DNA from: a virus
Length of the DNA: 64,000 bases
Reading direction: 5' to 3' (one strand)
Virus record (IMG/VR): IMGVR_UViG_3300002920_000014
Location: 1-64,000 of that record
The notes under the pieces were generated by a model. The model had not been told where the DNA came from, did not search any database, and saw only the letters and a program-made list of their open reading frames with translations. Made by a program: the position numbers and the translations under genes. Of this stretch, positions 28,554 through 60,355 are shown piece by piece. Each line of letters starts with the position of its first letter. Positions within the stretch are counted from its first letter, which is position 1.

Positions 28554-28794
28554 GTGTCATCTCCTAAAACCTCGATTTACTTGTTTATCGTAACAAGAAG
28601 TAGTCGTTTGTCAATAGACAGTCAAAACGTCGATAAAGCCTCAAAAATAAAGATAAAGTACCCACGTACCACTCAACAGAATTAAACGATTCTAGAGGCC
28701 TTCTAGGCCGTTTAAAAGGCATTCCTAAAATAGTCCACGGGAAACACAATCTTTATTCAGGGGAAAAGGTGGGGTGGATTATTAAAATAAAATT

Positions 28795-28846
28795 AGTTGC
28801 ACCTACATCACCTATAATAATTATTATAGGTGATGTAGGTGCAACT
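28795..28846. repeat. perfect 52-bp palindrome (AGTTGCACCTACATCACCTATAATAA / TTATTATAGGTGATGTAGGTGCAACT)
   Basis: Verified base by base. It begins 2 nt past the helicase stop. Its arm is near-identical to the palindrome at 53442-53484. Confidence 0.9.
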
Positions 28847-28848
28847 AA

Positions 28849-43385: not shown

Positions 43386-43796
43386 TTAACCCTCCTGACT
43401 AAGAATATTTTGTACATCTGCCGCATGTTCTGCTTCAGCAGATTGTAAATACTCCAGGAGAACTCCAGGTATGTTTGTGCCAATCCACAAAGCTGGATTG
43501 GGAGCAGGCCACAACGTAACTGGGTATTTAGGATCAATATGTTTAGATACAAAAGAATGCCACGACTTTGCAAACTTGACATTCTTAGACACAGCCCCAC
43601 TATTCTGCATCTGTGTCGCAACGTACACCAACAACTCATCTAAATCTAATATATCATTCTCCAACAAAAAGGAAGGTTTTTCAACCTTCACATTTTCTCG
43701 GACTGTCTCAATTACCTGTTTTTCAACAACTGGCGGACGCTTCAACTCCCGTACAATGAACAACAGTAGCATGAGTAAAATAATTAGGATTTCCAT
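43386..43796 (-). CDS. N-terminally membrane-anchored hypothetical protein (backbone paralog of 52786..53121)
   Basis: Hydrophobic N-terminus. Aligns by eye with the island ORF: LLENDILDLDELLVYV with ILEDGVVDLHELLVEV, KFAKSWHSFV with KLMKAWENFV, and PALWIGTNIPGVLLEYL with PVLWVGDKIPPPILDRL. Confidence 0.55.
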   Translation of the reverse strand: MEILIILLMLLLFIVRELKRPPVVEKQVIETVRENVKVEKPSFLLENDILDLDELLVYVATQMQNSGAVSKNVKFAKSWHSFVSKHIDPKYPVTLWPAPNPALWIGTNIPGVLLEYLQSAEAEHAADVQNILSQEG

Positions 43797-46297: not shown

Positions 46298-46745
46298 CCA
46301 TCACCCCTTTCTCGATTTTATCAACGAGACGAGCAAGGAACAGATCGAACCAATCGCCGAAATAACATTCTTGGTACATATCAACATCACCCACTAAACT
46401 AACAACTTCCTCCTGAAAGTCACGCTCATCAGGGTCATCACTATAAAAACCATCAGGAACATCTTGAGGACGAATGCGGCCAGAGATAGGCTCAACATGG
46501 AACTCATGACCAAAAATACTATAATACTCACAATCAACGGTGAACCATAAACTCCCAATCTCATACGACCACTGTGCATAGAAAGTAACCTCCTGTTCAT
46601 GACCAGAATCAGTCATGACAGAAAGAAAATGCACGTATTTTACAACCCACTTGCCCGAATAGACGTTAACGATCAAGCTATCCCGAATGGAGTTAGCATC
46701 ATACGTATAACTCTCAACAAGAGTATTTTGATTATTACTAATCAT
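46278..46745 (-). CDS. hypothetical acidic protein
   Basis: 155-aa ORF. Confidence 0.5.
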   Translation of the reverse strand: MISNNQNTLVESYTYDANSIRDSLIVNVYSGKWVVKYVHFLSVMTDSGHEQEVTFYAQWSYEIGSLWFTVDCEYYSIFGHEFHVEPISGRIRPQDVPDGFYSDDPDERDFQEEVVSLVGDVDMYQECYFGDWFDLFLARLVDKIEKGVMDDTFNG

Positions 46746-47172
46746 TGTTGACCTCCTTATGCTTTGGCGCGTGATAAAGTGCAGTAATCATGGAAAGATA
46801 TTTCCATGGTTTAGGCCAATCACTAAGAGCAACAGTGACTAAACTCTGATAGTCCGAAAAATTAAAAATTGGGAAACCAGAACAAGTTGCCCATAAATGG
46901 TCTGTATTATAGTAGACCTCAACATAGTCCTTAAAATAGTAAATGTCATGGTATGAAAACATACCATTTACCCACTTCAGATAACTAAATGGTGCGTGGT
47001 AGATGGTGAGGTTCTTCCATACACCAGAAGGCACGTAAGAACGGTCGCCCCCTCTAAGAACAAAATCTATAAAAACTTGTGGATTATTCTTCCACAAATC
47101 ATCCGACGTGGCAAAACGTCCAGACATAAATGCCTGCTGATAACCATAAACCAGATCATTGAATCTATTCAT
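46738..47172 (-). CDS. hypothetical protein
   Basis: ATG at 47172 overlaps the upstream stop region (AAAAATGAATAG). Confidence 0.5.
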   Translation of the reverse strand: MNRFNDLVYGYQQAFMSGRFATSDDLWKNNPQVFIDFVLRGGDRSYVPSGVWKNLTIYHAPFSYLKWVNGMFSYHDIYYFKDYVEVYYNTDHLWATCSGFPIFNFSDYQSLVTVALSDWPKPWKYLSMITALYHAPKHKEVNND

Positions 47173-48019
47173 TTTTAGCCCCCAAAGGAAAAAGTTGACC
47201 GTCGACCACGATAAAGTTTTTATCAAAAGCCTCGAGCATATCCTCGTACCACTGAAAGCTACCAGTGTACGACGCACCATACAAGATAGGAAACCAAGCC
47301 AAAGCAGTACTCAAAGACACTTCAAGATCCTCCGCCAAATCGAAATACGAGTAGTTTTTTGCCCACCCGTTACGACGGATAATCTCCTCAAAAGCGCTAT
47401 AATCGTACCCGCTGTTAGGAAGTGCGTCCCAATACGACAAACCAAGTGCCTCAATCACGCGACCATCCACCTCATCGTAGAACAGAGACACGAATTCGAT
47501 CAACTCCACCATGTCGTGCAGAGCATACCCGATAGTGCAATACACACTAAGGTTTTCGTAAACTTCTCTCAGAGAAGCAACGAAGCTCGGAGAAAGGAGA
47601 TAAATATATAGATCAGTGGTGTCGGTGTTAGCTGGAATCTTCACCGCGTCTCCGGTCGCCAACAAATACTCCAAAAGCAAATCCCCCAAACGAAGACGAG
47701 CATCGTCGTACGCTTCAGTGAGAGGGTATCTGCCATCAAACTGCAAATTTTCTGTGTAGATATTCCTAAACTCAAAAAGGAAAAGAGAATGATCATCACC
47801 GTCAACACGATCAATCTGCATTTGACGATCAACCCACACTTTAAGGGCATCAAACACCATAAAATCGCTAATATTGTACTCATCGAAGTCAGTAAGAGAA
47901 GTCGTGAACAAACAACTATCATAAAAGTACCACCCTCGGTACTTAACTTCGTCCTCATGCCGCAATAAAGAGGACATACCGGGGGTGTACTTAGGAATGG
48001 GGTTAGTGTACCAGAACAT
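47165..48019 (-). CDS. hypothetical acidic protein
   Basis: 284-aa ORF. Confidence 0.55.
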   Translation of the reverse strand: MFWYTNPIPKYTPGMSSLLRHEDEVKYRGWYFYDSCLFTTSLTDFDEYNISDFMVFDALKVWVDRQMQIDRVDGDDHSLFLFEFRNIYTENLQFDGRYPLTEAYDDARLRLGDLLLEYLLATGDAVKIPANTDTTDLYIYLLSPSFVASLREVYENLSVYCTIGYALHDMVELIEFVSLFYDEVDGRVIEALGLSYWDALPNSGYDYSAFEEIIRRNGWAKNYSYFDLAEDLEVSLSTALAWFPILYGASYTGSFQWYEDMLEAFDKNFIVVDGQLFPLGAKNE

Positions 48020-48070: not shown

Positions 48071-48143
48071 GTGCGCCCTACAGGATTCGAACCTGTAACC
48101 TAGTGGTTATGAGCCACCTGCTCTGACCGTTGAGCTAAAGGCG
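48071..48143 (-). tRNA. tRNA with CAU anticodon (elongator Met, or Ile2 if lysidine-modified)
   Basis: A hand-folded cloverleaf was obtained. The acceptor is GCGCCTT/AGGGCGC, the D arm GCTC/GAGC, the anticodon loop CTCATAA and the T arm ACAGG-TTCGAAT-CCTGT. Discriminator A. Confidence 0.85.
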
Positions 48144-48184
48144 CGTTGAAATCATTGTAACAAAAAGCTGTGTGTCAAACAACC

Positions 48185-48637
48185 CTAAATACTTGAAAGT
48201 AAATACTTGAAAGTCTCCAAGAAAGCATGGAGAACTTCAAAAGTCTGACAAACAAGGTTTTTATTCTGAACACACCGAACCAACACCTCCGCATCTTCAT
48301 CCCCAGTCAACGTCAGCCCAAATAAAAATACAACTTCAAAAAACTTAGGGTATTGAGCTTTAGCTAACTCTCTGTGAACGGCGCTAACCAAAACGCCGCC
48401 CGTATTTTCCACAAGAACATACATTACATCATCCCCCCAAGAAAGATTCAAAGGCAGAATCAAGTCGTCGTCTTGGTATGCAAGACGAATAGATTTGGCA
48501 TGCGGCCAGTTAAAAACAGCGCATGCCAAAATTAAATACATACTAATGTCCTCAGATGCGTCTGGGACAATATCAGAAATAACACTAGCGCACGAAAACA
48601 GTGCGCGTAAAGCTGGAACATCAATATACCCCACCAT
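48185..48637 (-). CDS. hypothetical protein
   Basis: Starts at the ATG at 48637. The longer ORF to 48721 runs into the tRNA gene. Confidence 0.5.
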   Translation of the reverse strand: MVGYIDVPALRALFSCASVISDIVPDASEDISMYLILACAVFNWPHAKSIRLAYQDDDLILPLNLSWGDDVMYVLVENTGGVLVSAVHRELAKAQYPKFFEVVFLFGLTLTGDEDAEVLVRCVQNKNLVCQTFEVLHAFLETFKYLLSSI

Positions 48638-48662: not shown

Positions 48663-48735
48663 TGCCCCTCGTGGGATTCGAACCCACACTGTGCCGATTT
48701 TAAGTCGGTTGCCTCTGCCATTGGGCTAGAGGGGC
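48663..48735 (-). tRNA. tRNA with UAA anticodon but a short (5-nt) variable loop; Leu(UAA)-like, atypical
   Basis: In the hand fold the acceptor is GCCCCTC/GAGGGGC and the anticodon loop is CTTAAAA. The T arm is GTGGG-TTCGAAT-CCCAC, with A73. The D stem has only 3 bp and there is an A27-C43 mismatch. Confidence 0.7.
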
Positions 48736-48739
48736 TAAA

Positions 48740-48812
48740 TGCCCTGGACAGGGATCGAACCTGCGACCTATCGCTTAGAAGGCGACTGCTCTATCCGCTG
48801 AGCTACCAGGGC
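48740..48812 (-). tRNA. tRNA-Arg (UCU)
   Basis: In the hand fold the acceptor is GCCCTGG/CCAGGGC and the D arm is GCTC/GAGC. The anticodon loop is CTTCTAA and the T arm is GCAGG-TTCGATC-CCTGT. Confidence 0.85.
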
Positions 48813-48877
48813 ATTTTTATGTTACCACTCTCCAATATCGAGGTCAATACTTAACCCCGATAAAAACGTATTACCAA

Positions 48878-49216
48878 TCACCCGACCACGTTTAAGAACC
48901 GATCATCGTTAAATACATGGTACTTCATCCCGAACTTGTTGGCAAGATCAGATAATGTTTGCTGTCTAATAACGTCACGCTCAGCGTGATGAATGTGACA
49001 ACCACCATCCACATCTACCAAATGAACGCCGCCTTTTGAATCGACGACGAGGAAGTCTACATAGAGGCCGCAGACATAAATATTTCTAAAGTACCGGTAA
49101 CCAATCTGGTCAAGGGAACGCATAAATGACACTTCTAGGTACTTACAAGGTTTAGTCTTAAGAATGCGAGTTTCCCCGCAAACTTCGCACGTTTGATACA
49201 TATTTTTTTGATACAT
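48878..49216 (-). CDS. DUF559/Vsr-like (PD-(D/E)xK-type) endonuclease-fold candidate with N-terminal CxxC
   Basis: ATG at 49216 follows TAAGGAGGAAAAT. The pattern YVDFLVV...LVDVDGGCH resembles DUF559 / very-short-patch-repair-like nuclease cores. Confidence 0.4.
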   Translation of the reverse strand: MYQKNMYQTCEVCGETRILKTKPCKYLEVSFMRSLDQIGYRYFRNIYVCGLYVDFLVVDSKGGVHLVDVDGGCHIHHAERDVIRQQTLSDLANKFGMKYHVFNDDRFLNVVG

Positions 49217-49284
49217 ATTTTCCTCCTTAGAATACACCAGAAATAAATTTAAGTATTCAAGAAGGGTAAGTTCATTCTCTTAAG

Positions 49285-49686: not shown

Positions 49687-49769
49687 AATACCCTCCTATA
49701 CTATCCACTAATATGCCAGATTGCCTACACACAAAACAACCTGGCATTTTTTACTAAAAGACGAACTTG

Positions 49770-50207
49770 CTATCTGGCTTGAACGCGAAGACGACGAATG
49801 CCAACAATATGGCCTTGTTCGTCACGTACTTGGGCATCAGGCGAAGTATCTGGGGCGAAAAGATCGGCCCGATGCCCTACGTCAGGAGCATCGATAACCA
49901 TTCCGGATACAATGAACAGCATCCCTTCACAGGGACTTGGTAGGCCTTGCACCGGCCCAAACTCTGTAGCCGAAACAGCCACGTCAAAACAACCCATCGA
50001 AGTGGTGTTTGGTAAAGATACCAACTTTACGGATCGTCTGGCCACGACACTCGTTTTGGCCAGACGATAGTGCTTACCATCCGTTCCAAAAATGTCAAAA
50101 TCGTGGGGTGTGCAGTTAAAAAACGGGCACAAAGGCGTACCCTGCAAATGCGCAGGGATTAGATAAATTGGCCCTTGAGGGCTGTCCAAAATTTCAAAAT
50201 TCTCCAT
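49770..50207 (-). CDS. hypothetical protein (GC-rich island)
   Basis: 145-aa ORF with GGAGATAGATT upstream of the ATG. Confidence 0.55.
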   Translation of the reverse strand: MENFEILDSPQGPIYLIPAHLQGTPLCPFFNCTPHDFDIFGTDGKHYRLAKTSVVARRSVKLVSLPNTTSMGCFDVAVSATEFGPVQGLPSPCEGMLFIVSGMVIDAPDVGHRADLFAPDTSPDAQVRDEQGHIVGIRRLRVQAR

Positions 50208-50456
50208 AATCTATCTCCGCGCCACTTTGGGCTGTCGCTACACCCTGCCACCAATTAAGCCGGTGACCAGCCAGTGGAGCTGTGGGGATTTGCACCCCAA
50301 TCCAGCCCGCCTGCCTTGTCAAGGCCGCCCCCTATCCTGTGCGCCTTCACGGGGGTCTTACGCGGCTCAGCGGGCTGTCGACACTATACCAGCCCCGTAT
50401 TTTGCGCGTGTAGGATGCGCGCCCCCCTTGAATCGACTTAGCGCCTTAATGCCAGT

Positions 50457-51284
50457 TCAGGTATAGACCGGATCATCGCCGGTTTTATTACCGTCTTGGA
50501 CAAATATTAGGTCATGAAGATCGACTTTTACCGTATCGTTACGGTAAAGGACGACCTTTTCCCAAACACCCCGGGTGGGCCTATCATCATGGTAAAACAA
50601 CCCGGGATTTTCATCTTGGTCATAGACGTAACCCTCTATAAGGGCCACGTCAGAGAAACCCAATTTCTCTCCGCCAGCTAGGAGGGTCATACCCTCCCAG
50701 CGGGCGTCTGGATCTTTAATTTTACGACCATCGGAGGTCGTGATTACTGGGTCTTTTCCCAACTCGGGATGAGAGACTCCATTGGCCCAATTACAGGCCA
50801 ACGGGCACTCGCCCATATGGAAAAATTTACCCCCCACAACCACATGGGGAGTGGACGAAAGAATCGAGCGCCTTTCGGCCTCAAGGGCCTGTAATTGGCC
50901 CAAATAGTATATGTAAGCCTTATGGGCCTCCTCGATGGCCGATAGGGCCTCTTCTACCGACGAAAAAATCGTCGGCTCTGGAGTTTCTCTATGCAACCAA
51001 GAGTTGCTGGCATCTACCCCAGTAGGGTTAGCACGCCAGCCCCTCTCCCCCTTCGAGAGGGCCGAGGGGTGGATTTCGACTATGGCCCCCACCTCTAGCA
51101 TGGAGGCCCTACGACCCGGCACAAAAACTGTTTGCGAATTTTTCTGATGGCGTGCCATGCTTAATAGCGCGCCATTCTCAAACAGCTTAACGACTTTGGC
51201 CGCTACAGTTATCGGACCAAAGTCACTAACCGTTCTATACGACGGTAAGTCGGGCAGTTTTACCCGACTGGGTATTTTATCCAC
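50457..51284 (-). CDS. hypothetical protein (GC-rich island; start uncertain)
   Basis: The ORF extends to 51380. A GTG at 51284 is preceded by AAGGGGGG and overlaps the upstream stop (GTGGATAA), suggesting translational coupling. Confidence 0.5.
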   Translation of the reverse strand: MDKIPSRVKLPDLPSYRTVSDFGPITVAAKVVKLFENGALLSMARHQKNSQTVFVPGRRASMLEVGAIVEIHPSALSKGERGWRANPTGVDASNSWLHRETPEPTIFSSVEEALSAIEEAHKAYIYYLGQLQALEAERRSILSSTPHVVVGGKFFHMGECPLACNWANGVSHPELGKDPVITTSDGRKIKDPDARWEGMTLLAGGEKLGFSDVALIEGYVYDQDENPGLFYHDDRPTRGVWEKVVLYRNDTVKVDLHDLIFVQDGNKTGDDPVYT

Positions 51285-51540
51285 GTTTACCCCCCTTAAC
51301 TTTTTTGGCCGCCCGACGAGCGGCCAGTTGAAACGAGTGCGTTGGCTGGGTATGGGGAATAGAAATGTTCTTACGCCCATGAGCCAACGTTAGCTCAATG
51401 GGATTGCCCGGAACAACAGTAAGAACTTTCTCCCCATTTTCCCAAGTGAAATACGGCAACTTACCGGACTTAAGGATTTCAGCAGCGTGACGCTGCTGAG
51501 ACTCAAGTTTTATCCTATCTTTCTTATTCTTTTTGGCCAT
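51277..51540 (-). CDS. small basic protein (GC-rich island)
   Basis: ATG at 51540 follows GAGGAAAAAATC. The longer ORF to 51597 would read through tRNA-like module 1. Confidence 0.5.
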   Translation of the reverse strand: MAKKNKKDRIKLESQQRHAAEILKSGKLPYFTWENGEKVLTVVPGNPIELTLAHGRKNISIPHTQPTHSFQLAARRAAKKVKGGKRG

Positions 51541-51570
51541 GATTTTTTCCTCGTCTTTGCATATATCAAA

Positions 51571-51647
51571 AACACCAGGTGGGATTCGAACCCACAAAAC
51601 CGTTTATGTCAGAGTTGTCTGATGAGACAAGTCTAACATCTGGTGTT
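51571..51647 (-). ncRNA. tRNA-like module 1 (acceptor-like stem + long hairpin + canonical T arm, no D arm)
   Basis: The - strand reads AACACCAG | ATGTTAGACTTGTCTCATCAGACAACTCTGACAT | AAACGGTTTT | GTGGG-TTCGAAT-CCCAC | CTGGTGTT, then TTTTT. Confidence 0.6.
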
Positions 51648-51650
51648 AAT

Positions 51651-51679
51651 AGTTTAACGTCATTTCGGACGGAAGTCAA
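51651..51679 (-). promoter_or_regulatory. sigma70-like promoter (TTGACT-17 nt-TAAACT) abutting tRNA-like module 1
   Basis: The -35 is at 51679-51674 and the -10 at 51656-51651. It is embedded in a 68-nt block identical to 52708-52775. Confidence 0.5.
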
Positions 51680-51737
51680 CAGGCAGTTTAACGTCATGCC
51701 CAGGACGATTTTCACTACGAAAGAACAAAACCCCTAA

Positions 51738-52013
51738 TCACAACCAGGGGTTCTGCTCTTTAATTTCCCGCTGGGTGGCTGCGTCACCCAGCCAAAAATA
51801 ATAATCGAGGTAGAGGAGCATAAGTTGGCGATTAAGCACCAGATAGGTGTCATAATCATCCTCGGTAGCCTCTAGATAGGCTTCTAAGACACGAGGACGC
51901 AAAGCCTCAATTTCACGGCGCAAAATGCGCGCGTATCCACGACGACGGGCAACCCCAATTCGCTCAGCCATTTCATGAGCACGCTTACGAGCGGCACGAC
52001 GGTCTTCGCACAT
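51738..52013 (-). CDS. small Arg-rich protein (GC-rich island)
   Basis: ATG at 52013 follows TAAGGAGAAAAATC. Confidence 0.5.
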   Translation of the reverse strand: MCEDRRAARKRAHEMAERIGVARRRGYARILRREIEALRPRVLEAYLEATEDDYDTYLVLNRQLMLLYLDYYFWLGDAATQREIKEQNPWL

Positions 52014-52045
52014 GATTTTTCTCCTTACTGTTCTTGTATACAAAA

Positions 52046-52116
52046 AACACCAGGTGGGATTCGAACCCACAAAACCAATTATGACAGACTTTGTAAAAAA
52101 TCTGTCATCTGGTGTT
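52046..52116 (-). ncRNA. tRNA-like module 2
   Basis: The - strand reads AACACCAG | ATGACAGATTTTTTACAAAGTCTGTCAT | AATTGGTTTT | GTGGG-TTCGAAT-CCCAC | CTGGTGTT, then TTTTT. Confidence 0.6.
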
Positions 52117-52139
52117 ATAAAGAATGGATTGATATTTAA

Positions 52140-52601
52140 TCAATCCACCCACTCCAGCCCACCGACAAAGTCGGTGGAGTGAACGAAACCGCTTGACGAC
52201 GGGTGGCAACAGCCACCCCATCCTCGAGACCTTATGAATTCCGAAGCCGCCTTATAGTACTCTTCACGGCGCTCTTTCCCCTGATGCCCAGGGAAATTAA
52301 GTTTCATCCAACCAAAGTACTCTCTTTGAAACTCTAACTCCTGAGGAGTTAGCGTTTCCTCGACGGAGGATTCTTCTTCTTCTTCGTGTTCAAACGAAGA
52401 AAGACGACAGGCAGTGCGCAAAAGCGCCTCAGGATCAAAAAGTTCGTCATCATCCCCGTCTATGACGATGACGGGAACATCGTCGTCATCGTCGTCATCG
52501 TCGTTAGAATCGAAACGACGGGCCTTGCTAAGAGCAACGATATTGTTCAGGGCCTGCTCGGCCCAAGTCTCATCAACGGGATTGAAGGTTTCGATAGTCA
52601 T
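52140..52601 (-). CDS. highly acidic protein with poly-Asp and poly-Glu tracts (GC-rich island)
   Basis: ATG at 52601 follows TAGGAGAAACATC. Contains DSNDDDDDDDDVPVIVIDGDDDELFDPE and HEEEEESSVEE. Confidence 0.55.
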   Translation of the reverse strand: MTIETFNPVDETWAEQALNNIVALSKARRFDSNDDDDDDDDVPVIVIDGDDDELFDPEALLRTACRLSSFEHEEEEESSVEETLTPQELEFQREYFGWMKLNFPGHQGKERREEYYKAASEFIRSRGWGGCCHPSSSGFVHSTDFVGGLEWVD

Positions 52602-52640
52602 GATGTTTCTCCTATTCTTGTATTACATTCGCGTACAAAA

Positions 52641-52715
52641 AACACCAGGTGGGATTCGAACCCACAAGACCAATTATGACGTACTACCCACATAGACAGT
52701 ACGACATCTGGTGTT
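52641..52715 (-). ncRNA. tRNA-like module 3
   Basis: The - strand reads AACACCAG | ATGTCGTACTGTCTATGTGGGTAGTACGTCAT | AATTGGTCTT | GTGGG-TTCGAAT-CCCAC | CTGGTGTT, then TTTTTT. Confidence 0.6.
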
Positions 52716-52718
52716 AAT

Positions 52719-52747
52719 AGTTTAACGTCATTTCGGACGGAAGTCAA
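52719..52747 (-). promoter_or_regulatory. sigma70-like promoter (TTGACT-17 nt-TAAACT) abutting tRNA-like module 3
   Basis: The sequence is identical to the 51651-51679 element. Confidence 0.5.
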
Positions 52748-52785
52748 CAGGCAGTTTAACGTCATGCCCAGGACGTGAGGCTGAA

Positions 52786-53121
52786 TTAGTTTCTCGGAGA
52801 AAGTCTATCCAAAATGGGCGGGGGGATCTTGTCCCCTACCCATAAAACCGGTGTTTGTCCCCTCAGACCCACTACGGGGTACTCTTCTGGGGAGACAAAC
52901 GCCCCAACGAAATTTTCCCAAGCTTTCATAAGCTTGGGGTCGTCTGAGACGCCCCCATATTCGTGGAGGAGGGTTATCACCTCCACGAGGAGCTCGTGGA
53001 GGTCCACAACGCCATCTTCAAGAATGTAAGACGGCGCCACAACCCTCTCAACTACTTTTTCAACCTCAATCACTTTCTCAATCACTTTTGGCGCAAAAAA
53101 GCGCCGAAAAAACTTGAACAT
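52786..53121 (-). CDS. hypothetical protein; GC-rich paralog of backbone gene 43386..43796
   Basis: TAAGGAGGACAC upstream of the ATG. Collinear similarity to 43386..43796 over most of its length (see that entry). Confidence 0.6.
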   Translation of the reverse strand: MFKFFRRFFAPKVIEKVIEVEKVVERVVAPSYILEDGVVDLHELLVEVITLLHEYGGVSDDPKLMKAWENFVGAFVSPEEYPVVGLRGQTPVLWVGDKIPPPILDRLSPRN

Positions 53122-53376
53122 GTGTCCTCCTTATAGGCGATTAGAGCGATTTTTACAGCCCCTAGGTAGAGGTACAAGCCTGGGGGCTGTAAAAACGCTT
53201 TATAGGCCCTTGTGGGCCTTGTATGAGGCACTAGAAAAAACACCTAATGCCCCCCACAAGAGTCACAAGGGGTGACGGCCCGTACGGATAAGGCTGGCTA
53301 GGCCCCTGGGTAGCCCGTACACTCCCAGGAAAAGGTCATCCTCGTAATAAAATATACTAATATTTTGGTATTAATT

Positions 53377-53548
53377 ATGTTGATTAAAAAATCAACTATG
53401 CTAGTATTATGTCAGTACGGTGTCAGTACTGACAGGGAAACGCACCTATATCACCTATTATATTATATTAGGTGATATAGGTGCATTTTGCACCCTTCCC
53501 CTGAAAAAACTAGCATAGTGTTGACATAGTTGATTTTTTAATCAACAT
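53377..53548. repeat. 172-bp nested inverted-repeat structure in an AT-rich patch
   Basis: The outer arms are 53377-53404 and 53510-53548; the right arm carries an 11-nt insertion. The central palindrome is GCACCTATATCACCTA-11 nt-TAGGTGATATAGGTGC at 53442-53484. There are inner palindromes GTTGATTAAAAAATCAAC, GTCAGTACTGAC and GTTGATTTTTTAATCAAC. Confidence 0.85.
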
Positions 53549-53647
53549 GTCAGCACTACCCCATTTTAACACGGGGTAAAAAATTTTTTAACTTGTGTTA
53601 AAATTTAATTTTAAACTAGCAAAAAAATTATTTTAACTCATTTTAAA

Positions 53648-53793
53648 CCCCAGCCCCAGCCCCTCATTAGGGCTGGGGCTGGGGGCTGGAGGCTGGGGTA
53701 TGGGGGCTGTATTCGCCCCCATACCCCACAGCCCTTGTGGTGATTACGGGGGCTGGAGGCTGGGGTATGGGGCTGTATTCGCCCCCATACCCC
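53648..53793. repeat. GC-rich hairpin repeat cluster
   Basis: One 15-bp hairpin is CCCCAGCCCCAGCCC / GGGCTGGGGCTGGGG at 53648-53684. There are also two copies of GGGGGCTGGAGGCTGGGGTATGGGG(G)CTGTATTCGCCCCCATACCCC, each forming a 12-13-bp hairpin (53695-53727 and 53762-53793). Confidence 0.85.
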
Positions 53794-53806
53794 AGTTCTT
53801 GAGCCT

Positions 53807-54085
53807 CTAAACCCCGGGGGGGAGAATCGGCTTGGGCCGATTTTCCCACTTCAGCATCATTGCCCTAACTTCCTCGGGCAGACGCGGGTCATCGGGCGTT
53901 ACGACTTCTATCCCGTTTGGGCCACTATATACCCAAATTTTTTCACGCCATAGCCATCTTACCGTGTAGGCTTTTTCCAAAATCAACCCCCCGTCCCGAC
54001 GGAGGGGCCCCCAACACACTGCATGAGGCAGTGTGTCCAGGGTATAAAAAAACCCAATGCGTTCGCGCTTGTTTGACTTTTTCAT
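53807..54085 (-). CDS. hypothetical protein (GC-rich island)
   Basis: 92-aa ORF with GAGGATACG upstream of the ATG. Confidence 0.5.
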   Translation of the reverse strand: MKKSNKRERIGFFYTLDTLPHAVCWGPLRRDGGLILEKAYTVRWLWREKIWVYSGPNGIEVVTPDDPRLPEEVRAMMLKWENRPKPILPPGV

Positions 54086-54119
54086 CGTATCCTCGTTTCT
54101 TTTGATAGTTAAGTGTGTT

Positions 54120-54160
54120 GGAGGCTGGAGGCTGGGCGGGGGCTGTATCAGCCCCCGCCC
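54120..54160. repeat. third member of the GGAGGCTGG-hairpin family
   Basis: GGAGGCTGGAGGCTG is followed by the 12-bp hairpin GGGCGGGGGCTG-TAT-CAGCCCCCGCCC, located between two - strand genes. Confidence 0.8.
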
Positions 54161-54183
54161 AGATGACTTCGACTAGCTTTCGG

Positions 54184-54657
54184 CTAGTCGAAGTCGTATT
54201 CGTATTCCGAGTCGTCAAGGTCCAAGTCAAGGTAGGTGACTTTTGAAAGAGCCTTCTTTATGAACGCTCTTACCTCACCGTATACCGGTCCGCACTGGTT
54301 GAACCAGTGCCAACTGGAATAAGTAGTCAACTTGGACGCAAAGAACTTAAGCGCCGCCCCCACTTGGGGCGGTAGAGGACTTGGGTTACAACCGTACCAG
54401 GCTAGACGGCCTTCAAAGACGCGAATGCGTCCGACGTATGCTGATGAGCGTTTACCCGTACTGTCTACATTGGCCATACGGACGGCGTATATGTTTTCCG
54501 TGTTCTTAACAAACGCCAGCGTCATAAAGCTGGCGTTTGTTATGTTGCCATCTTCACGCTCGACTTCTACAAGTAAGCTAAACCGCCCCGTCGCTTTTTC
54601 TTCTTTTTTGGCGGCTTGGCGGGCGTTTAGGGCGTTTATGTATTGCTTGGCGTTCAT
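54184..54657 (-). CDS. hypothetical protein with acidic C-terminus (GC-rich island)
   Basis: ATG at 54657 is preceded by TAAGGAGGCTATC. The longer ORF start at 54705 lacks an SD. Confidence 0.55.
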   Translation of the reverse strand: MNAKQYINALNARQAAKKEEKATGRFSLLVEVEREDGNITNASFMTLAFVKNTENIYAVRMANVDSTGKRSSAYVGRIRVFEGRLAWYGCNPSPLPPQVGAALKFFASKLTTYSSWHWFNQCGPVYGEVRAFIKKALSKVTYLDLDLDDSEYEYDFD

Positions 54658-54705
54658 GATAGCCTCCTTATGGTTAACGGTTAGCAGTGCCTCAATCTGA
54701 GACAC

Positions 54706-55517
54706 TAGTAAGGGCCGTAACGTATGGCACGTTACGGCCCTTACTATTGGCTCGATTGATACGGGCTACTGTGACGGGCGTCACAGTAGCCCTAATCTTG
54801 TTGATTGCCCCCCTCGGGGTCAACGGGCGGGAGTCCTCATACCCTATGCCAGCTTACCCTCGTACATTGTACTACTCTCAGACTGGCCCGCGCCTCGCCC
54901 CAGCTAGTTGACTTACGATACCTTAAGTCCCTGTTACTGAAACTTACGCGGCTACTCTCTTACTACTCCTGCCGGTTGTCTTTTGCCCGTCTATAGCCAC
55001 TTGAATGACTTACCGTCACCCGTATGGGCTATTCGTGGCTATGGCCCGCGGGCGGGGTAACCCCCGCCCACAAGTAGCGCTAACCGTCTGCGCCTCAGCT
55101 ACGCCCGCGGCCAGCCCAAAACTGGAACTTGTTCCAGTGCTGGTAACGTCTCGGCCCTCACAGCTCGCCTTACGCTGTTCCGAGTTTCGAGGCGTCCCGT
55201 ATACCGCGTCTAGGTATCTAGACTTACGGGTCATCCCGCCCACTCGGGCGACAGCTTCCAGTGACGCTCTTAGGGGCGTCACCGTTAAGGGCGGCCGTTC
55301 CCAGTTCACCGCTGGGCCTCGGGGGCTTTCACCCCGAGCTAGGCTCGCCGTCCTCTAATCATGCGCTTGGGGGGTAACCCGCCCCAAGGGCTTTTCGAGG
55401 GACTTACTCGCGCGGGCGCATTCCGCGCATTAGGCAGCGCTCAATTGTTAAGGAGCGTTTGGGGGCGTTCCGTCTACCCCCTCGGGGGGGCTGGCCCGTC
55501 TGCCAGCCCGTCTTGAC
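54706..55517 (-). ncRNA. candidate large structured RNA or ~0.8 kb structured 5' leader (bounds approximate)
   Basis: There is no convincing ORF on the transcribed strand. At least 12 GC-rich hairpins are present, including a perfect 16-bp stem at 54707-54745 and a 13-bp stem at 54763-54792. GGGGTAACCC-type loops recur. A sigma70-like promoter lies immediately upstream. Confidence 0.45.
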
Positions 55518-55523
55518 ACTGAC

Positions 55524-55552
55524 ATACTACCTCGCCCCGTTAGCGGAGTCAA
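55524..55552 (-). promoter_or_regulatory. sigma70-like promoter (TTGACT-17 nt-TAGTAT)
   Basis: The -35 is at 55552-55547 and the -10 at 55529-55524. An AT-rich, UP-like stretch lies upstream on the - strand. It points into the structured region. Confidence 0.55.
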
Positions 55553-55605
55553 CTGTTTAGCCGTTTTCTTTAATCTGTTTCTCATGTTTTTCATTTTGGG
55601 GCGTC

Positions 55606-55800
55606 GCCAGCTGCTCCAGCAACGGCAGTCTCCAGCTGCTCCAGCAACGGCAGTCTCCAGCTGCTCCAGCAACGGCAGTCTCCAGCTGTTCCAACAACGG
55701 GCGTCGCCCGCTGTTCCAACAACGGGGGCGACTGCTCCAGCAACGGGGGCGACTGCTCCAGCAACGGCAGTCTCCAGCTGCTCCAGCAACGGGGGGCGAC
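55606..55800. repeat. eight tandem iteron-like repeats (21-25-nt period)
   Basis: The core GCTG(C/T)TCCA(G/A)CAACGG starts at 55610, 55635, 55660, 55685, 55710, ~55731, ~55752 and 55777. Confidence 0.9.
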
Positions 55801-55992
55801 TGCTTTTACCAGTCTTTAGGGGTGTATTCTTGTTCTGTTTTTTGTTGTGTGTACTGTCTGTTACTTTTTAAGTGTCAAGGCTATGTGTATATTACTAACA
55901 TATAGCTTTGTTACAATTATTATGGAATATTCCGAAATGTTTGAATCACGTTGTGACAAACGTATCGAGATTTTTTATGAATTTTTTAATTA

Positions 55993-56022
55993 TTGACTTT
56001 TGATACTAGTATGTGGTATAAT
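55993..56022 (+). promoter_or_regulatory. strong sigma70-like promoter (TTGACT-18 nt-TATAAT, TGG extended -10)
   Basis: The -35 is at 55993-55998 and the -10 at 56017-56022. It shares ATGTGGTATAATTAATTA with the promoter at 61822-61851. Confidence 0.65.
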
Positions 56023-56048
56023 TAATTAAATTTATATGGGGGGTTGTT

Positions 56049-56453
56049 ATGGGAAGACCAGCACTATCTTTGACGGACTATTTAAATCTTGCTAAAGACT
56101 GCAATCTTGAGTTTATTGGCCCTATGCCTGCTGATTCATCTGATAGTTCTCCTGCTTGGCGTTGTTTAATTACTGGTATTATTCAACATAAAAGTTATAA
56201 TGCAGTCAAAGCCACTTATCCTTATGGAAACCGATACCAAAAAGACTTTGAGAAGCAACTTGATAAATATCACTCTTTGGCTAAAAAACTTGGAATTACT
56301 TTTATTCATGAACCTGGTAAATTCCCTTATAATGTCAAAGTAGTTTGCTCCTGGTTAGGTCGTAATGGTAACATAGTACGTTGCTCTTATCACGATTTGG
56401 CGTACCAAACTATCCCTCGTCGACTTCTTGAGGAGCTTGGGATTGAAGACTGA
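56049..56453 (+). CDS. hypothetical protein
   Basis: 134-aa ORF with GGGGGG upstream. It is the first gene of the + strand block. Confidence 0.55.
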   Translation: MGRPALSLTDYLNLAKDCNLEFIGPMPADSSDSSPAWRCLITGIIQHKSYNAVKATYPYGNRYQKDFEKQLDKYHSLAKKLGITFIHEPGKFPYNVKVVCSWLGRNGNIVRCSYHDLAYQTIPRRLLEELGIED

Positions 56454-59104: not shown

Positions 59105-60026
59105 CGAGTTAACGATTTTTCCTCCGCTTAAGTCTGATCAAATACGTGCTTGTGAGACCGTAGCTGAACAACGTGTAAGAGAGAAGTTGGGTCCAAAACC
59201 TACACTTGAAGCTTACACTAGTATGGTTTCTGAAAAAGCAAGTAGTCGTGCGATTCTTTCTACTTTGGTTACACCTATTGACTATTTTATGATTCCTTTG
59301 TTGATTGCTTTGTTCATGGTTAGTATGTCTCACATGATTACTTTTTCAGGTTCTATAGCAGATACTAGTTACCATGAGCAGGCTGATGGTTTTGCTGGTA
59401 TCTGGTTTTCACCGTTTGTTTGGGCTATCATAACTCAGTTTGGTTTTTTCTTCATGAGTGAAATTGGTATTATTTTTTTCTACAATCGTTACCGTCAAGT
59501 TGATGTTGATAGGTCTCGTTTTCGTAGTCCTAACTTTTGGATGTCTATTCTTTTTGCTGTGTTGACTTTCGTGGCTAATATTGTCTCGTTGCTTAATAAC
59601 GCAGAGGGGGTACTTAGTGTCGGTCTTGCGGTATTTGTTGGTGCTTTGGTTCCAGCTGCTACTCTTCTTATGGGGGATCGTTGGGCAGAGATTACCTTTG
59701 AGTTAGTTGAGTCTAAGAAGCGTTATGCTCAAGAGTTTAATGATGCTGTAGCTAAGTACCGTGCTGATCTTGATCGTTGGTCTCGAATTAATGAAGATCC
59801 TACTTTGTACTCTGTTGGAAATGGTAAAGATTCTTATCGTATTTATCTTGGCAAAGCCATTGTGGAATACTACAAACGTTATATTGTTACAACTCCGTCT
59901 TTTAAAAGTAGGCACGGTGAAGTTTCTTGGAATCCTAATCTTGAAGTTTCTCTTGCTGCTAGAGAGATAGCAAATTTATCGGTGTTTTCAGATTTAGATC
60001 AGGTGGTGGAAAATTTTTTATCTTGA
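59094..60026 (+). CDS. multi-pass membrane protein, function unknown
   Basis: 310 aa with about 5 hydrophobic helices. Confidence 0.55.
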   Translation: MMSNELTIFPPLKSDQIRACETVAEQRVREKLGPKPTLEAYTSMVSEKASSRAILSTLVTPIDYFMIPLLIALFMVSMSHMITFSGSIADTSYHEQADGFAGIWFSPFVWAIITQFGFFFMSEIGIIFFYNRYRQVDVDRSRFRSPNFWMSILFAVLTFVANIVSLLNNAEGVLSVGLAVFVGALVPAATLLMGDRWAEITFELVESKKRYAQEFNDAVAKYRADLDRWSRINEDPTLYSVGNGKDSYRIYLGKAIVEYYKRYIVTTPSFKSRHGEVSWNPNLEVSLAAREIANLSVFSDLDQVVENFLS

Positions 60027-60355
60027 GTAGGGTAAGATCTGATCGTTTGTTGGGCCTTATCCAAAAGTTGTTGAAAAACGAAACTGAACCTGAAACTGAA
60101 CCTGAAACTGAAACTGAACCTGAAACTGAACCTGAAACTGAACCTGAAACTGAAACTGAAACTGAACCTGAAACTGAAACTGAAACTGTAATTGAAACCG
60201 AACCTGAAACTGAACCTAAATTCAGAGGTAAAAAAGGTATAATATTACAGTACTTAACTGATCACTCAGAGTTATCAGGTAGTCAAGTAGCAAAACATTT
60301 CAATGTAACACCACAGTATGTTAATCGATTGAGGAAACTGTTGTTTGTTATATAA
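60023..60355 (+). CDS. ETEP-repeat protein with C-terminal HTH
   Basis: (E-T-E-P / E-T) repeats are followed by ILQYLTDHSELSGSQVAKHFNVTPQYVNRLRK. Confidence 0.55.
   Translation: MSRVRSDRLLGLIQKLLKNETEPETEPETETEPETEPETEPETETETEPETETETVIETEPETEPKFRGKKGIILQYLTDHSELSGSQVAKHFNVTPQYVNRLRKLLFVI
60080..60217 (+). repeat. coding hexanucleotide tandem repeat (GAAACT / GAACCT units)
   Basis: Read directly from the sequence. It encodes the Glu-Thr-Glu-Pro tract. Confidence 0.9.

Follow-up and report, generated by a model that had tools for sequence, protein, structure and literature searches.

Functionally, the closest described counterparts of the locus reported here are the leading regions of conjugative plasmids and the early regions of phages, among the latter the class I genes of T7 with ocr, the pre-early first-step-transfer region of T5 and the host-takeover module of SPO1. 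Phage early regions are usually rich in orphan genes, and these three sit promoter-proximally at the end of an early unit and combine small orphan genes, strong Shine-Dalgarno (SD) sites and several host-type promoters with long intergenic hairpins of the processing type; they also include an acidic protein and a gene directed against host defence. Morons and mosaic modules of tailed phages, known from the work of Hendrix and colleagues, are units of promoter, gene and terminator with deviant composition. In RNA viruses and RNA phages, ordered RNA structure is found at the scale of the genome, where coding sequence outfolds its dinucleotide or synonymous shuffles for kilobases. As to the plasmid leading regions, these were recently reported to be richer in guanine and cytosine (GC), codon-adapted, rich in anti-defence genes and equipped with GC-rich hairpin promoters (bioRxiv 10.1101/2025.04.03.647016). 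Here, we analyzed 64,000 nucleotides of a phage (positions 1 to 64,000 of IMG/VR virus record IMGVR_UViG_3300002920_000014; "the window" denotes this whole stretch), in which about 6 kb combine raised GC with excess secondary structure, tRNA-like elements and a candidate ring nuclease. We refer to this segment, taken as 49,700-55,880 for composition statistics, as the island, and to the remainder of the window as the backbone. The island is a genuine feature and more than a GC step. Our leading, though still tentative, reading is that it represents a native, first-expressed accessory or counter-defence module at the start of a leftward early operon.

By its sequence, the island resembles the T7, T5 and SPO1 early regions in each of the properties listed above. 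We know of none among these regions that is a GC-rich island, is punctuated by tRNA-like elements or is base-paired throughout its coding sequence, and no homology was found between the island and any of the three. A moron is a single gene between conserved genes, whereas the island is one unbroken block of 6 kb that opens an operon; and while ordered structure in RNA viruses concerns whole RNA genomes, here it occupies a single 6-kb segment of a double-stranded DNA phage. The plasmid leading regions share with the island first expression, higher GC, shifted codons, anti-defence genes and GC-rich hairpins. They enter the cell, however, as single-stranded DNA, with hairpins acting as single-strand promoters, whereas a tailed phage injects double-stranded DNA. 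Moreover, hairpin density in the plasmid study was unlinked to position within the leading 50 kb (bioRxiv 10.1101/2025.04.03.647016), whereas excess folding is the main feature of the island.

The segment was first noticed in a sequence-only reading, which described abrupt switches of base composition near 49.7 and 55.9 kb. Sliding-window analysis located the biggest local GC steps at ~49,780 (+0.095) and ~55,800 (-0.295), and overall GC was 0.510 in the island versus 0.387 in the remaining window. The lack of a significant GC step, which that reading had named as fatal to its proposal, was not what we found: all 10 of the 1-kb island windows (0.463-0.575 GC) exceeded every backbone window (maximum 0.455, mean 0.387, sd 0.035, n=113). 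Its statement that the island genes use GC-rich codons was borne out as well, with GC at third codon positions (GC3) of 0.45-0.58 in the island ORFs (open reading frames) compared with 0.23-0.43 in most backbone genes, and the tetranucleotide comparison that it proposed separated the two sets, the island correlating with the backbone at 0.26-0.45 and backbone windows at 0.63+-0.08. By dinucleotide distance (delta*), island windows scored 104-142 and those of the backbone 58+-24. The segment thus departs from the replicon that carries it in GC, codon usage and oligonucleotide signature, as is usual for a genomic island. The two edges are not alike. The right edge is abrupt, whereas the left edge is graded at synonymous sites, since the three genes directly to the left have GC3 of 0.45-0.50. 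Coding sequence fills only 54% of the island. Avoidance of restriction sites was considered as a cause of the GC shift and rejected, as depletion of restriction-type 4- and 6-bp palindromes was no stronger in the island than in the backbone; only CCGG and TGCA were low, with 14 observed against 36 expected and 9 against 21, respectively, in 49700-55880.

The position of the island within the genome is equally distinctive. The window encodes a tape measure protein, DNA polymerase, helicase, primase, DNA methyltransferase and large terminase (TerL), and belongs to a siphovirus-type phage. Genes lie on the minus strand at 22-55.9 kb and on the plus strand at 1-22 kb and from 56.05 kb on; all island genes are on the minus strand, and the island therefore forms the first, promoter-proximal ~6 kb of a leftward operon. 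Its starting point is a divergent promoter region, rich in AT and adjacent to the terminase operon; the GC drop at 55.8 kb coincides with this region, which carries the sequence TTGACT-18-TATAAT on the plus strand at 55993-56022. Genes from 42 to 55.9 kb were orphans throughout in family-library searches. Considering cos and pac phage packaging in general, the terminase neighborhood suggests that the island DNA may be packaged last and injected first.

To quantify secondary structure, we divided the transcribed strand into non-overlapping windows of 150 nt, folded each and expressed its stability as a z-score against dinucleotide shuffles. Island windows had a mean z of -3.0, with 65% below -2 (n=40), compared with a mean of -0.46 and 11% below -2 in the backbone (n=386; Mann-Whitney p 3e-14). 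This excess is not an effect of GC, since backbone windows with GC>=0.45 have a mean z of -0.14. The division of GC between paired and unpaired positions was the same in shuffled sequence as in the island and thus does not bear on the idea that the extra GC is located in the stems. We then permuted synonymous codons within each gene, keeping protein and codon usage fixed. All eight island ORFs folded better than their permutations, with z from -2.3 to -12.9 (Table 1), compared with a mean of -0.9 for 16 backbone genes (p 1.8e-4). For ORF7, the minimum free energy (MFE) of -371.7 kcal/mol compares with -282.1+-6.9 kcal/mol for the permutations, i.e., the native sequence is more stable by 90 kcal/mol, and its mRNA folds into a near-continuous string of ~22 hairpins of 6-13 bp. 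The signal ends at ORF8, at the GC step: b49285 and b48878, beyond this edge, have z of -0.8 and -0.1. It is not wholly confined to the island, as two backbone early genes at 48185-48634 and 46738-47280, both on the minus strand, also outfold their permutations (z -4.3 and -3.7).

The second unusual property of the island is a set of tRNA-like elements between its genes. Three of these, which we term t-elements A, B and C, consist of an 8-bp acceptor-like stem stacked directly on a hairpin of 10-16 bp, a 10-nt linker with an invariant GG, and a canonical T-arm, which in A reads GUGGG-UUCGAAU-CCCAC and is followed by a U-run. An acceptor stem of 7-8 bp, a 5-bp T stem and a UUCGAAU loop are all features of tRNAs. 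The t-elements are nevertheless not tRNAs, since in their folds the D arm and the anticodon loop are absent and a single long hairpin takes their place; neither ARAGORN nor the Rfam tRNA model detected any of the three. Acceptor stem and T-arm are invariant across the copies, while the middle hairpin varies in sequence with its pairing kept by three compensatory pairs, the sole support of the covariation type at this locus. A covariance model (CM) of the t-elements matched only the three copies themselves and the backbone tRNA-Leu (26.9 bits), whose T-arm is identical to theirs at 17 of 17 positions. In architecture, the t-elements mimic the tRNA elbow, in principle like the tRNA-like domain of transfer-messenger RNA (tmRNA) or the modules of Y RNAs. 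The tmRNA domain, Y RNAs, the stable RNAs C and D of T4 and tRNA-punctuated organellar transcripts likewise join an acceptor and T-arm elbow to another helix in place of the anticodon arm, and likewise sit between coding units, at positions open to cleavage by RNase P or RNase Z. For bacterial Y RNAs, tRNA-like modules have been described (PMC4201824). Unlike these known modules, the t-elements match no Rfam model, and no Ro/Rsr gene accompanies them.

The units of ORF4, ORF5 and ORF6/7 share one form, namely a promoter-like site, a t-element, a U-run, an SD site and the ORF. Given this placement after promoter-like sites and their terminal U-runs, the t-elements might just as well represent attenuators or small RNAs. 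The pattern of punctuation crosses the left boundary of the island, as each of the three backbone tRNAs at 48.0-48.8 kb is likewise preceded by a promoter-like site and followed by an ORF. CCA is not encoded in any tRNA or tRNA-like element of the phage. At only 73 nt and lacking a long variable arm, the backbone tRNA-Leu(UAA) is atypical of bacterial-type tRNA-Leu. An origin of the t-elements as attP-like copies of a host tRNA 3' end was considered and discarded, as the corresponding 24-mer is absent from 185,579 species genomes. IMG/VR contained a single match to this 24-mer, at 6470-6550 of the jumbo-phage record IMGVR_UViG_3300044712_000815 (159 kb), in an uncalled tRNA-like sequence that has the same T-arm and 3' acceptor but is otherwise dissimilar, and that lies in a cluster of 15 tRNAs in 7 kb.

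Upstream of ORF8, the place of a t-element is taken by a 125-nt RNA that resembles the tRNA-like domain of tmRNA. The Rfam match runs from end to end of the model (Table 1), at a score below the RF00023 gathering score of 47. The element has a 7-bp acceptor stem with G3:U70, a discriminator A73, the D-loop analogue UCGAC, a 9-bp P2 helix and a T-arm, and carries 48 nt in place of the ~294 nt that hold the mRNA-like domain and pseudoknots. It is not a tmRNA, given its sub-threshold score and the absence of a message; ARAGORN reported neither a tmRNA nor a tag peptide, and no resume codon, tag ORF or pseudoknot was found. Within 50330-50365 (minus strand), directly after helix P2a, the sequence GCC GCG UAA (Ala-Ala-stop) occurs without a proper resume context, probably by chance rather than as a vestigial tag. 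Only the three backbone tRNAs reached the Rfam threshold, and a permissive scan of the island added this sub-threshold match and hairpin-level noise. Reduced tmRNAs without an mRNA-like domain and with the same alanine identity elements have been described in jakobid mitochondria (PMC3590771). Like the island RNA, they retain only the tRNA-like domain, with a G:U third pair and an A discriminator. The jakobid RNAs, however, are mostly two-piece and organellar, whereas the island RNA is one-piece and phage-borne, falls below threshold and has an atypical T-loop, UGCAAAU.

ORF8 is the sole island ORF with recognizable relatives. It matched the Crn4a structure 9sma (E 3.4e-5), the Crn4b structure 9r7b (1.7e-4) and the Crn4 structure 9qs9 (1.3e-3) in PDB, the PADLOC family Unk_01 ("sometimes fused to CARF"; E 8e-12) and phrog_30542, and is 32-36% identical to proteins of Bacillus and Paenibacillus phages. 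The residues T13, H15 and R112 (A. procaprae numbering) have been named as catalytic in Crn4 (PMC12830947). In ORF8, the segments NCTPHDF and VRD align with NLTPHE and IRD/VRD, at T13/H15 and R112 of Crn4a (motifs N-x-T-P-H and (I/V)-R-D). The alignment with Crn4a and Crn4b covers most of the length of ORF8 and keeps the T-P-H and R residues, although identity to these PDB chains is low (E 1e-3 to 3e-5). Its sequence and catalytic residues thus place ORF8 in the Crn4 family as a new candidate ring nuclease. Since it combines Crn4 similarity with the retained T-P-H and R residues, we consider it a candidate counter-defence enzyme, probably acting against type III CRISPR or the cyclic-oligonucleotide-based antiphage signaling system (CBASS). 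Rare phage and plasmid homologues of Crn4, including phage-borne homologues of Crn4b, have been reported as probable anti-CRISPRs (PMC12830947).

The remaining proteins are small orphans, including ORF4, which is very acidic, with an isoelectric point of 4.2 and a run of nine Asp. SD sites precede all eight island ORFs, and codon periodicity is significant in seven, ORF2 being the exception. ORF7 had one match among 5.8e9 proteins, the identical called protein P0001. ORF3 is 39% identical over 104 aa (E 2e-21) to the product of a backbone ORF, the sole pair of paralogs between island and backbone. AlphaFold predictions from single sequences were too low in confidence for use, with a predicted local distance difference test (pLDDT) score of 36.7 for ORF8 and 36 for ORF7.

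Taken as a native module, the island would work as follows. Host RNA polymerase would start at the sigma-70-like promoters at ~55.5, 53.6, 52.7 and 51.7 kb, yielding unusually GC-rich transcripts that, according to the computed folding excess, would be nearly fully paired in leaders and ORFs alike. Tracts directly 5' of ORF4, ORF5, ORF6 and ORF8 would each present a tRNA-like module, three of them t-elements and one an alanine-type tmRNA-like domain. The RNase P and RNase Z of the host could excise these modules, by analogy with tRNA precursors that lack CCA; alternatively, the modules might cap and stabilize the mRNAs. The ring nuclease predicted from ORF8 would destroy the cyclic oligoadenylate (cOA) alarm signals of type III CRISPR or CBASS, alongside the small orphan proteins that the module would also supply. 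The raised GC would then accompany selection for stable structure and for codons that do not depend on the tRNAs of the phage, and it is better read in this manner than as nothing more than a remnant of foreign DNA. A GC-richer relative may nonetheless have contributed part of the segment, e.g., the ORF3 paralog.

A more far-reaching version of this proposal, which we regard as speculative and rather improbable, is that of a "stealth" early module, whose transcripts would have been selected down to their synonymous sites for near-complete double-strandedness and tRNA-like punctuation while delivering a ring nuclease. Such transcripts would escape defences that target RNA by a guide or through its single strands, such as type III CRISPR, Cas13 and cOA-activated RNases, and the tRNA and tmRNA mimics, including an alanine-chargeable domain without a message, would serve as decoys or as handles for processing. 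AcrIIIA1, an anti-CRISPR against type III systems, acts together with fragments of tRNA and tmRNA (PMC11662646), which may be taken as a loose link to counter-defence and no more than a lead.

The codon usage of the phage is in line with the native module. The AGA fraction falls from 0.43 in late genes to 0.25 in middle and 0.11 in early-distal genes, with 0.12 in the island, and the UUA fraction is 0.34, 0.25, 0.14 and 0.08 in the same four groups. Of the three phage tRNAs, UCU reads AGA, UAA reads UUA and CAU reads AUG, or AUA if it is lysidine-modified. Since AGA and UUA become rarer towards the early genes, the early genes largely avoid codons that need phage tRNAs, as one would expect where the host offers a poor supply of them. 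The pattern suggests such a poor supply, and that the CAU tRNA may read AUA. AUA itself has fractions of 0.48 in late, 0.27 in middle and 0.10 in early-distal genes.

Upstream of ORF1, ~1.2 kb of the island contains no ORF and consists of a tandem array and a structured leader. The leader has an MFE of -414.8 kcal/mol (z -7.6; 54700-55610), and at its 3' end are two long hairpins, at 54758-54797 and at 54699-54753, the latter with 25-nt arms that are 92% complementary. Its codon periodicity is borderline (p 0.04, period-3 signal-to-noise ratio 2.3), and hidden coding by recoded stops was rejected, as there is no open frame and none with a single type of stop. A scan of 54650-55900 yielded no Rfam family even at E<=10, only chance matches at the level of hairpins; accordingly, no covariance-model match supports GOLLD, ROOL, HEARO, OLE, a group I or II intron, RNase P or another Rfam 15 RNA. 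The array comprises eight copies of the 13-nt core GTTGCTGGAGCAG, two of them as GTTGTTGGAACAG, spaced by 21 or 25 nt with three linker types. The core is confined to the array (eight occurrences, 0.3 expected), which adjoins an AT-rich stretch (GC 0.32 at 55850-56149). Tandem direct repeats about two helical turns apart next to such a stretch are typical of iteron origins, but no DnaA box was found within 7 kb and no recognizable initiator gene in library searches. ToxI-type tandem repeats have equal units of about 34-45 nt. An RNA antitoxin of a type III toxin-antitoxin system (ToxI-like) or a pseudo-ToxI was rejected for the array, with its variable unit length (21/25 nt) and no ToxN or AbiQ-like gene.

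Further downstream, the island contains several types of hairpins and repeats, in part anticipated by the sequence-only reading. The GC hairpin repeats that it described as restricted to the island are indeed so, at 53645-53800 and 54120-54162. One of the two hairpins after ORF1 spans the ORF1 stop codon, and the other, H1, has the tail AGCCUCCAGCCUCC and no U-tract; AGCCUCCAGCC tails occur on the GC hairpins behind both ORF1 and ORF2, and H2 and H3 are followed by a terminator-like hairpin and UUU. A nested palindrome of 170 bp consists of 40-nt arms (53377-53416 and 53509-53548) that enclose a second palindrome at 53438-53488. The proposed sharing of a palindrome between island and backbone was verified: inverted pairs of GCACCTAYATCACCTA lie at 53442/53469 in the island and at 28799/28827 in the backbone, where none is expected by chance, and may represent a shared operator or bidirectional terminator. 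The backbone palindrome (28793-28848) is near-perfect, ~56 nt long and has a U-rich tail, and its arm motif is that of the island palindrome. The proposed paralogy of the ORFs at 52786..53121 and 43386..43796 also proved correct, as described above for ORF3. The repeated promoter that the same reading assigned to the island stood in part. A 72-bp unit, each copy with TTGACT-17-TAAACT flanked by two copies of ATGACGTTAAACT, does occur twice with 100% identity, but its promoter is of an ordinary sigma-70 type, which our scan also found along the minus strand of the backbone. The low coding fraction, saturating structure, tRNA- and tmRNA-like elements and Crn4-type ring nuclease go beyond what that reading had contained.

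No relatives of the phage emerged from our searches. Using blastn and tblastn against INPHARED, no match was found for the island, its flank or the DNA polymerase. With TerL as an anchor, IMG/VR and JGI contigs returned only matches of 26-28% identity, in which the upstream region was not similar; the best identity of TerL to any sequence was 28%. Among 5.8e9 proteins, ORF7, ORF3 and ORF8 each matched only themselves, i.e., their own copy on a 73,752-bp JGI contig, and a profile of the ORF3 paralog pair retrieved no third member among 1.8e9 cluster representatives. Exact-pattern scans for the palindrome and for the 3' half of the tmRNA-like element returned no match, nor did a host search using the 3' half of the phage tRNA-Arg. 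The phage is thus a singleton in all of these collections.

We weighed the native module against four other explanations of the island. The most serious is that the 6 kb were recombined from a related phage of a GC-richer host, with their composition unameliorated and their structure incidental or inherited, which we judge possible though not probable. It would account for the distinct GC at all three codon positions, codon choice and amino-acid usage, for the deviating di- and tetranucleotide signature, for a second, 39% identical copy of a backbone early gene, for the island-specific repeats and style of hairpin terminators, and for a sharp right edge at an operon boundary. It leaves unexplained, however, why every ORF outfolds its synonymous permutations up to the point where the GC ends, and it sits poorly with a left edge that is graded in GC3, with a T-arm identical to that of the resident tRNA-Leu, with a palindrome common to the backbone and with the lack of donor-like sequence in the databases searched. 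We prefer a native segment because the synonymous sites of every ORF are arranged to pair, and because folding, GC, low coding density and RNA-like elements share their borders at the 5' end of a transcription unit. The two explanations can also be combined. That the island is compositionally distinct and yet tied to its genome, as the sequence-only reading maintained, is supported by the paralog, the palindrome and the T-arm identity, and the arrangement of promoter, tRNA-like element and ORF likewise runs on past the left boundary.

Those ties also bear on whether the island is an artifact of assembly, in which foreign GC-rich DNA was mis-joined into the contig. The abrupt composition change and the status of the contig as a metagenomic singleton would suit a chimera, but such a chimera would need two misjoins that place backbone on both sides. 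It would also have to accommodate four independent links between island and backbone (the ORF3 paralog, the palindrome, the T-arm identity and the tRNA-Leu match of the t-element model) as well as operon orientation, SD usage and promoter type that are the same as in the backbone. As two misjoins and four sequence links would have to be explained away, we consider a chimera highly unlikely. Scarcely any more probable is a resident mobile element of a parasitic or semi-autonomous kind, the latter having been put forward in the sequence-only reading. The compositional contrast, the island's own promoters and the internal repeats are compatible with such an element, yet library searches found no integrase, transposase, recognizable Rep or homing endonuclease within the island, its edges have no terminal direct or inverted repeats or target duplications, and its genes continue the orientation and layout of the operon. 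A function at the level of DNA, with the ORFs as ordinary early genes embedded in a replication origin and/or a packaging or first-entry end, is improbable in our estimate; it would act, for example, through binding of an initiator or terminase, cruciforms or single-stranded intermediates. The eight 13-bp cores about two helical turns apart beside a 200-bp AT-rich stretch, the 170-bp nested palindrome at 53.4-53.5 kb, a folding excess that is equal on both strands and the adjoining terminase operon all point towards it. Conversely, neither DnaA boxes nor a recognizable initiator gene lie nearby, the hairpins extend over 6 kb, far beyond the need of an origin or pac site, and an origin would not account for the tRNA-like modules or the codon shift.

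Several observations weigh against the native module that we favor. Folding z was -3.19 on one strand and -3.12 on the other (p 0.6), and the hairpins could therefore act in DNA instead of RNA. The island shows no avoidance of AUA (0.30, n=50), and one codon shift is specific to it and absent from neighboring early genes: GCC makes up 0.51 of Ala codons and CCC with CCG 0.65 of Pro codons, while the fraction of Gly, Ala, Arg and Pro (GARP) in island proteins is 0.277 compared with 0.175-0.214 elsewhere. These shifts are what a GC-rich donor would leave, and the altered oligonucleotide signature and the hairpins without U-tracts fit such a donor too. The coding status of ORF2 is uncertain, and only one of the eight island proteins gives a functional hint. 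Promoters, processing and early timing are all deduced from sequence, and since no relatives were found, there is no support from conservation or from covariation between genomes.

Should the "stealth" proposal hold, the island would be a case of region-specific ordered RNA structure in a double-stranded DNA phage. If the reading as a native module is right, the composition and synonymous sites of the first-expressed phage genes can be shaped by selection on RNA or DNA structure and by timing relative to the phage's own supply of tRNAs, and foreign ancestry would not be the sole cause of GC islands, such that a phage GC island could not automatically be equated with horizontal transfer. Taken with the plasmid leading-region data, the locus suggests that the segment expressed first follows common design rules in incoming mobile DNA. 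It also yields concrete objects: a phage-borne ring nuclease candidate of the Crn4 type, a message-less tmRNA-like RNA, a family of t-elements without a D arm as gene punctuation, and a ~860-nt leader outside the described RNA families.

Table 1. Coordinates of the island features and of the backbone features compared with them. Permutation z denotes the folding z-score of an ORF against its synonymous permutations.
Feature	Coordinates	Strand	Permutation z	Description
Iteron-like tandem array	55603..55792	.		TRF period 25, 7.9 copies
Putative sigma-70-like promoter	55524..55552	-		TTGACT-17-TAGTAT, at 5' end of leader; from consensus scan
Structured ORF-free leader	54658..55520	-		~860 nt, upstream of ORF1; GC 0.55-0.64
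ORF1	54184..54657	-	-4.3	157 aa, orphan; SD AAGGAGG; periodicity p 2e-4; no match in four family libraries
Two GC hairpins after ORF1	54120..54197	-		Window z -8 to -9
ORF2	53807..54085	-	-6.1	92 aa; SD; periodicity p 0.29, not significant
GC hairpin repeats H2, H3	53645..53800	-		25-26-nt blocks 100% identical; window z -7 to -8
AT-rich internal intergenic region	53340..53644	.		~300 bp, GC ~0.36; promoter-like sites, nested palindromes
ORF3	52786..53121	-	-3.3	111 aa; paralog of backbone ORF 43386-43796; structured 5' untranslated region of ~210 nt (53125-53340)
72-bp repeat, copy 1	52704..52775	-		Promoter-like; overlaps 5' end of t-element A
t-element A	52636..52716	-		Fold z -3.9; CM 101.9 bits; 35 nt upstream of ORF4
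ORF4	52140..52601	-	-2.7	153 aa; periodicity p 5e-8
t-element B	52041..52117	-		Fold z -5.6; CM 100.4 bits; upstream of ORF5
ORF5	51738..52013	-	-2.3	91 aa, orphan; SD, codon periodicity
72-bp repeat, copy 2	51636..51707	-		Promoter-like; overlaps 5' end of t-element C
t-element C	51566..51648	-		Fold z -5.1; CM 96 bits; upstream of ORF6
ORF6	51277..51540	-	-4.5	87 aa, basic; stop overlaps GTG start of ORF7 (GTGGATAA)
ORF7	50457..51284	-	-12.9	275 aa, orphan; periodicity p 7e-7
tmRNA-like tRNA domain	50272..50396	-		125 nt, upstream of ORF8; Rfam RF00023 37.2 bits, E 2.7e-12
ORF8	49770..50207	-	-3.7	145 aa, candidate Crn4-family ring nuclease; PDB, PADLOC and phrog matches
Backbone tRNA-Arg(UCU)	48739-48813	-		Promoter-like site before, ORF after
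Backbone tRNA-Leu(UAA)	48663-48735	-		Promoter-like site before, ORF after
Backbone tRNA-CAU	48071-48144	-		Promoter-like site before, ORF after
Backbone paralog of ORF3	43386..43796	-		Sequence comparison
Backbone copy of GCACCTAYATCACCTA palindrome	28793..28848	.		Between helicase and DNA polymerase genes

Several minor observations concern the backbone. Beside the tRNA genes, a small ORF at 48878-49237 (minus strand) has weak, sub-threshold matches to Vsr-like and DUF559 endonucleases (E 5e-4 and 1.5e-3) and may encode a homing-type nuclease. We also considered an early region of the N4 type, in which hairpin promoters serve a giant virion RNA polymerase, and rejected it, as the giant ORF of 3636 aa encodes a tape measure protein. 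This gene, at 3094-14004 on the plus strand, implies an exceptionally long tail, and at 5845-7448 it contains at least seven diverged tandem units of 219 nt (73 aa). Finally, in the head region, positions 60051-60242 (plus strand) within the ORF 60023-60355 consist of tandem 6- and 12-nt units (GAAACTGAACCT, about ten registers), an array that would encode a repeat rich in Glu, Thr and Pro.

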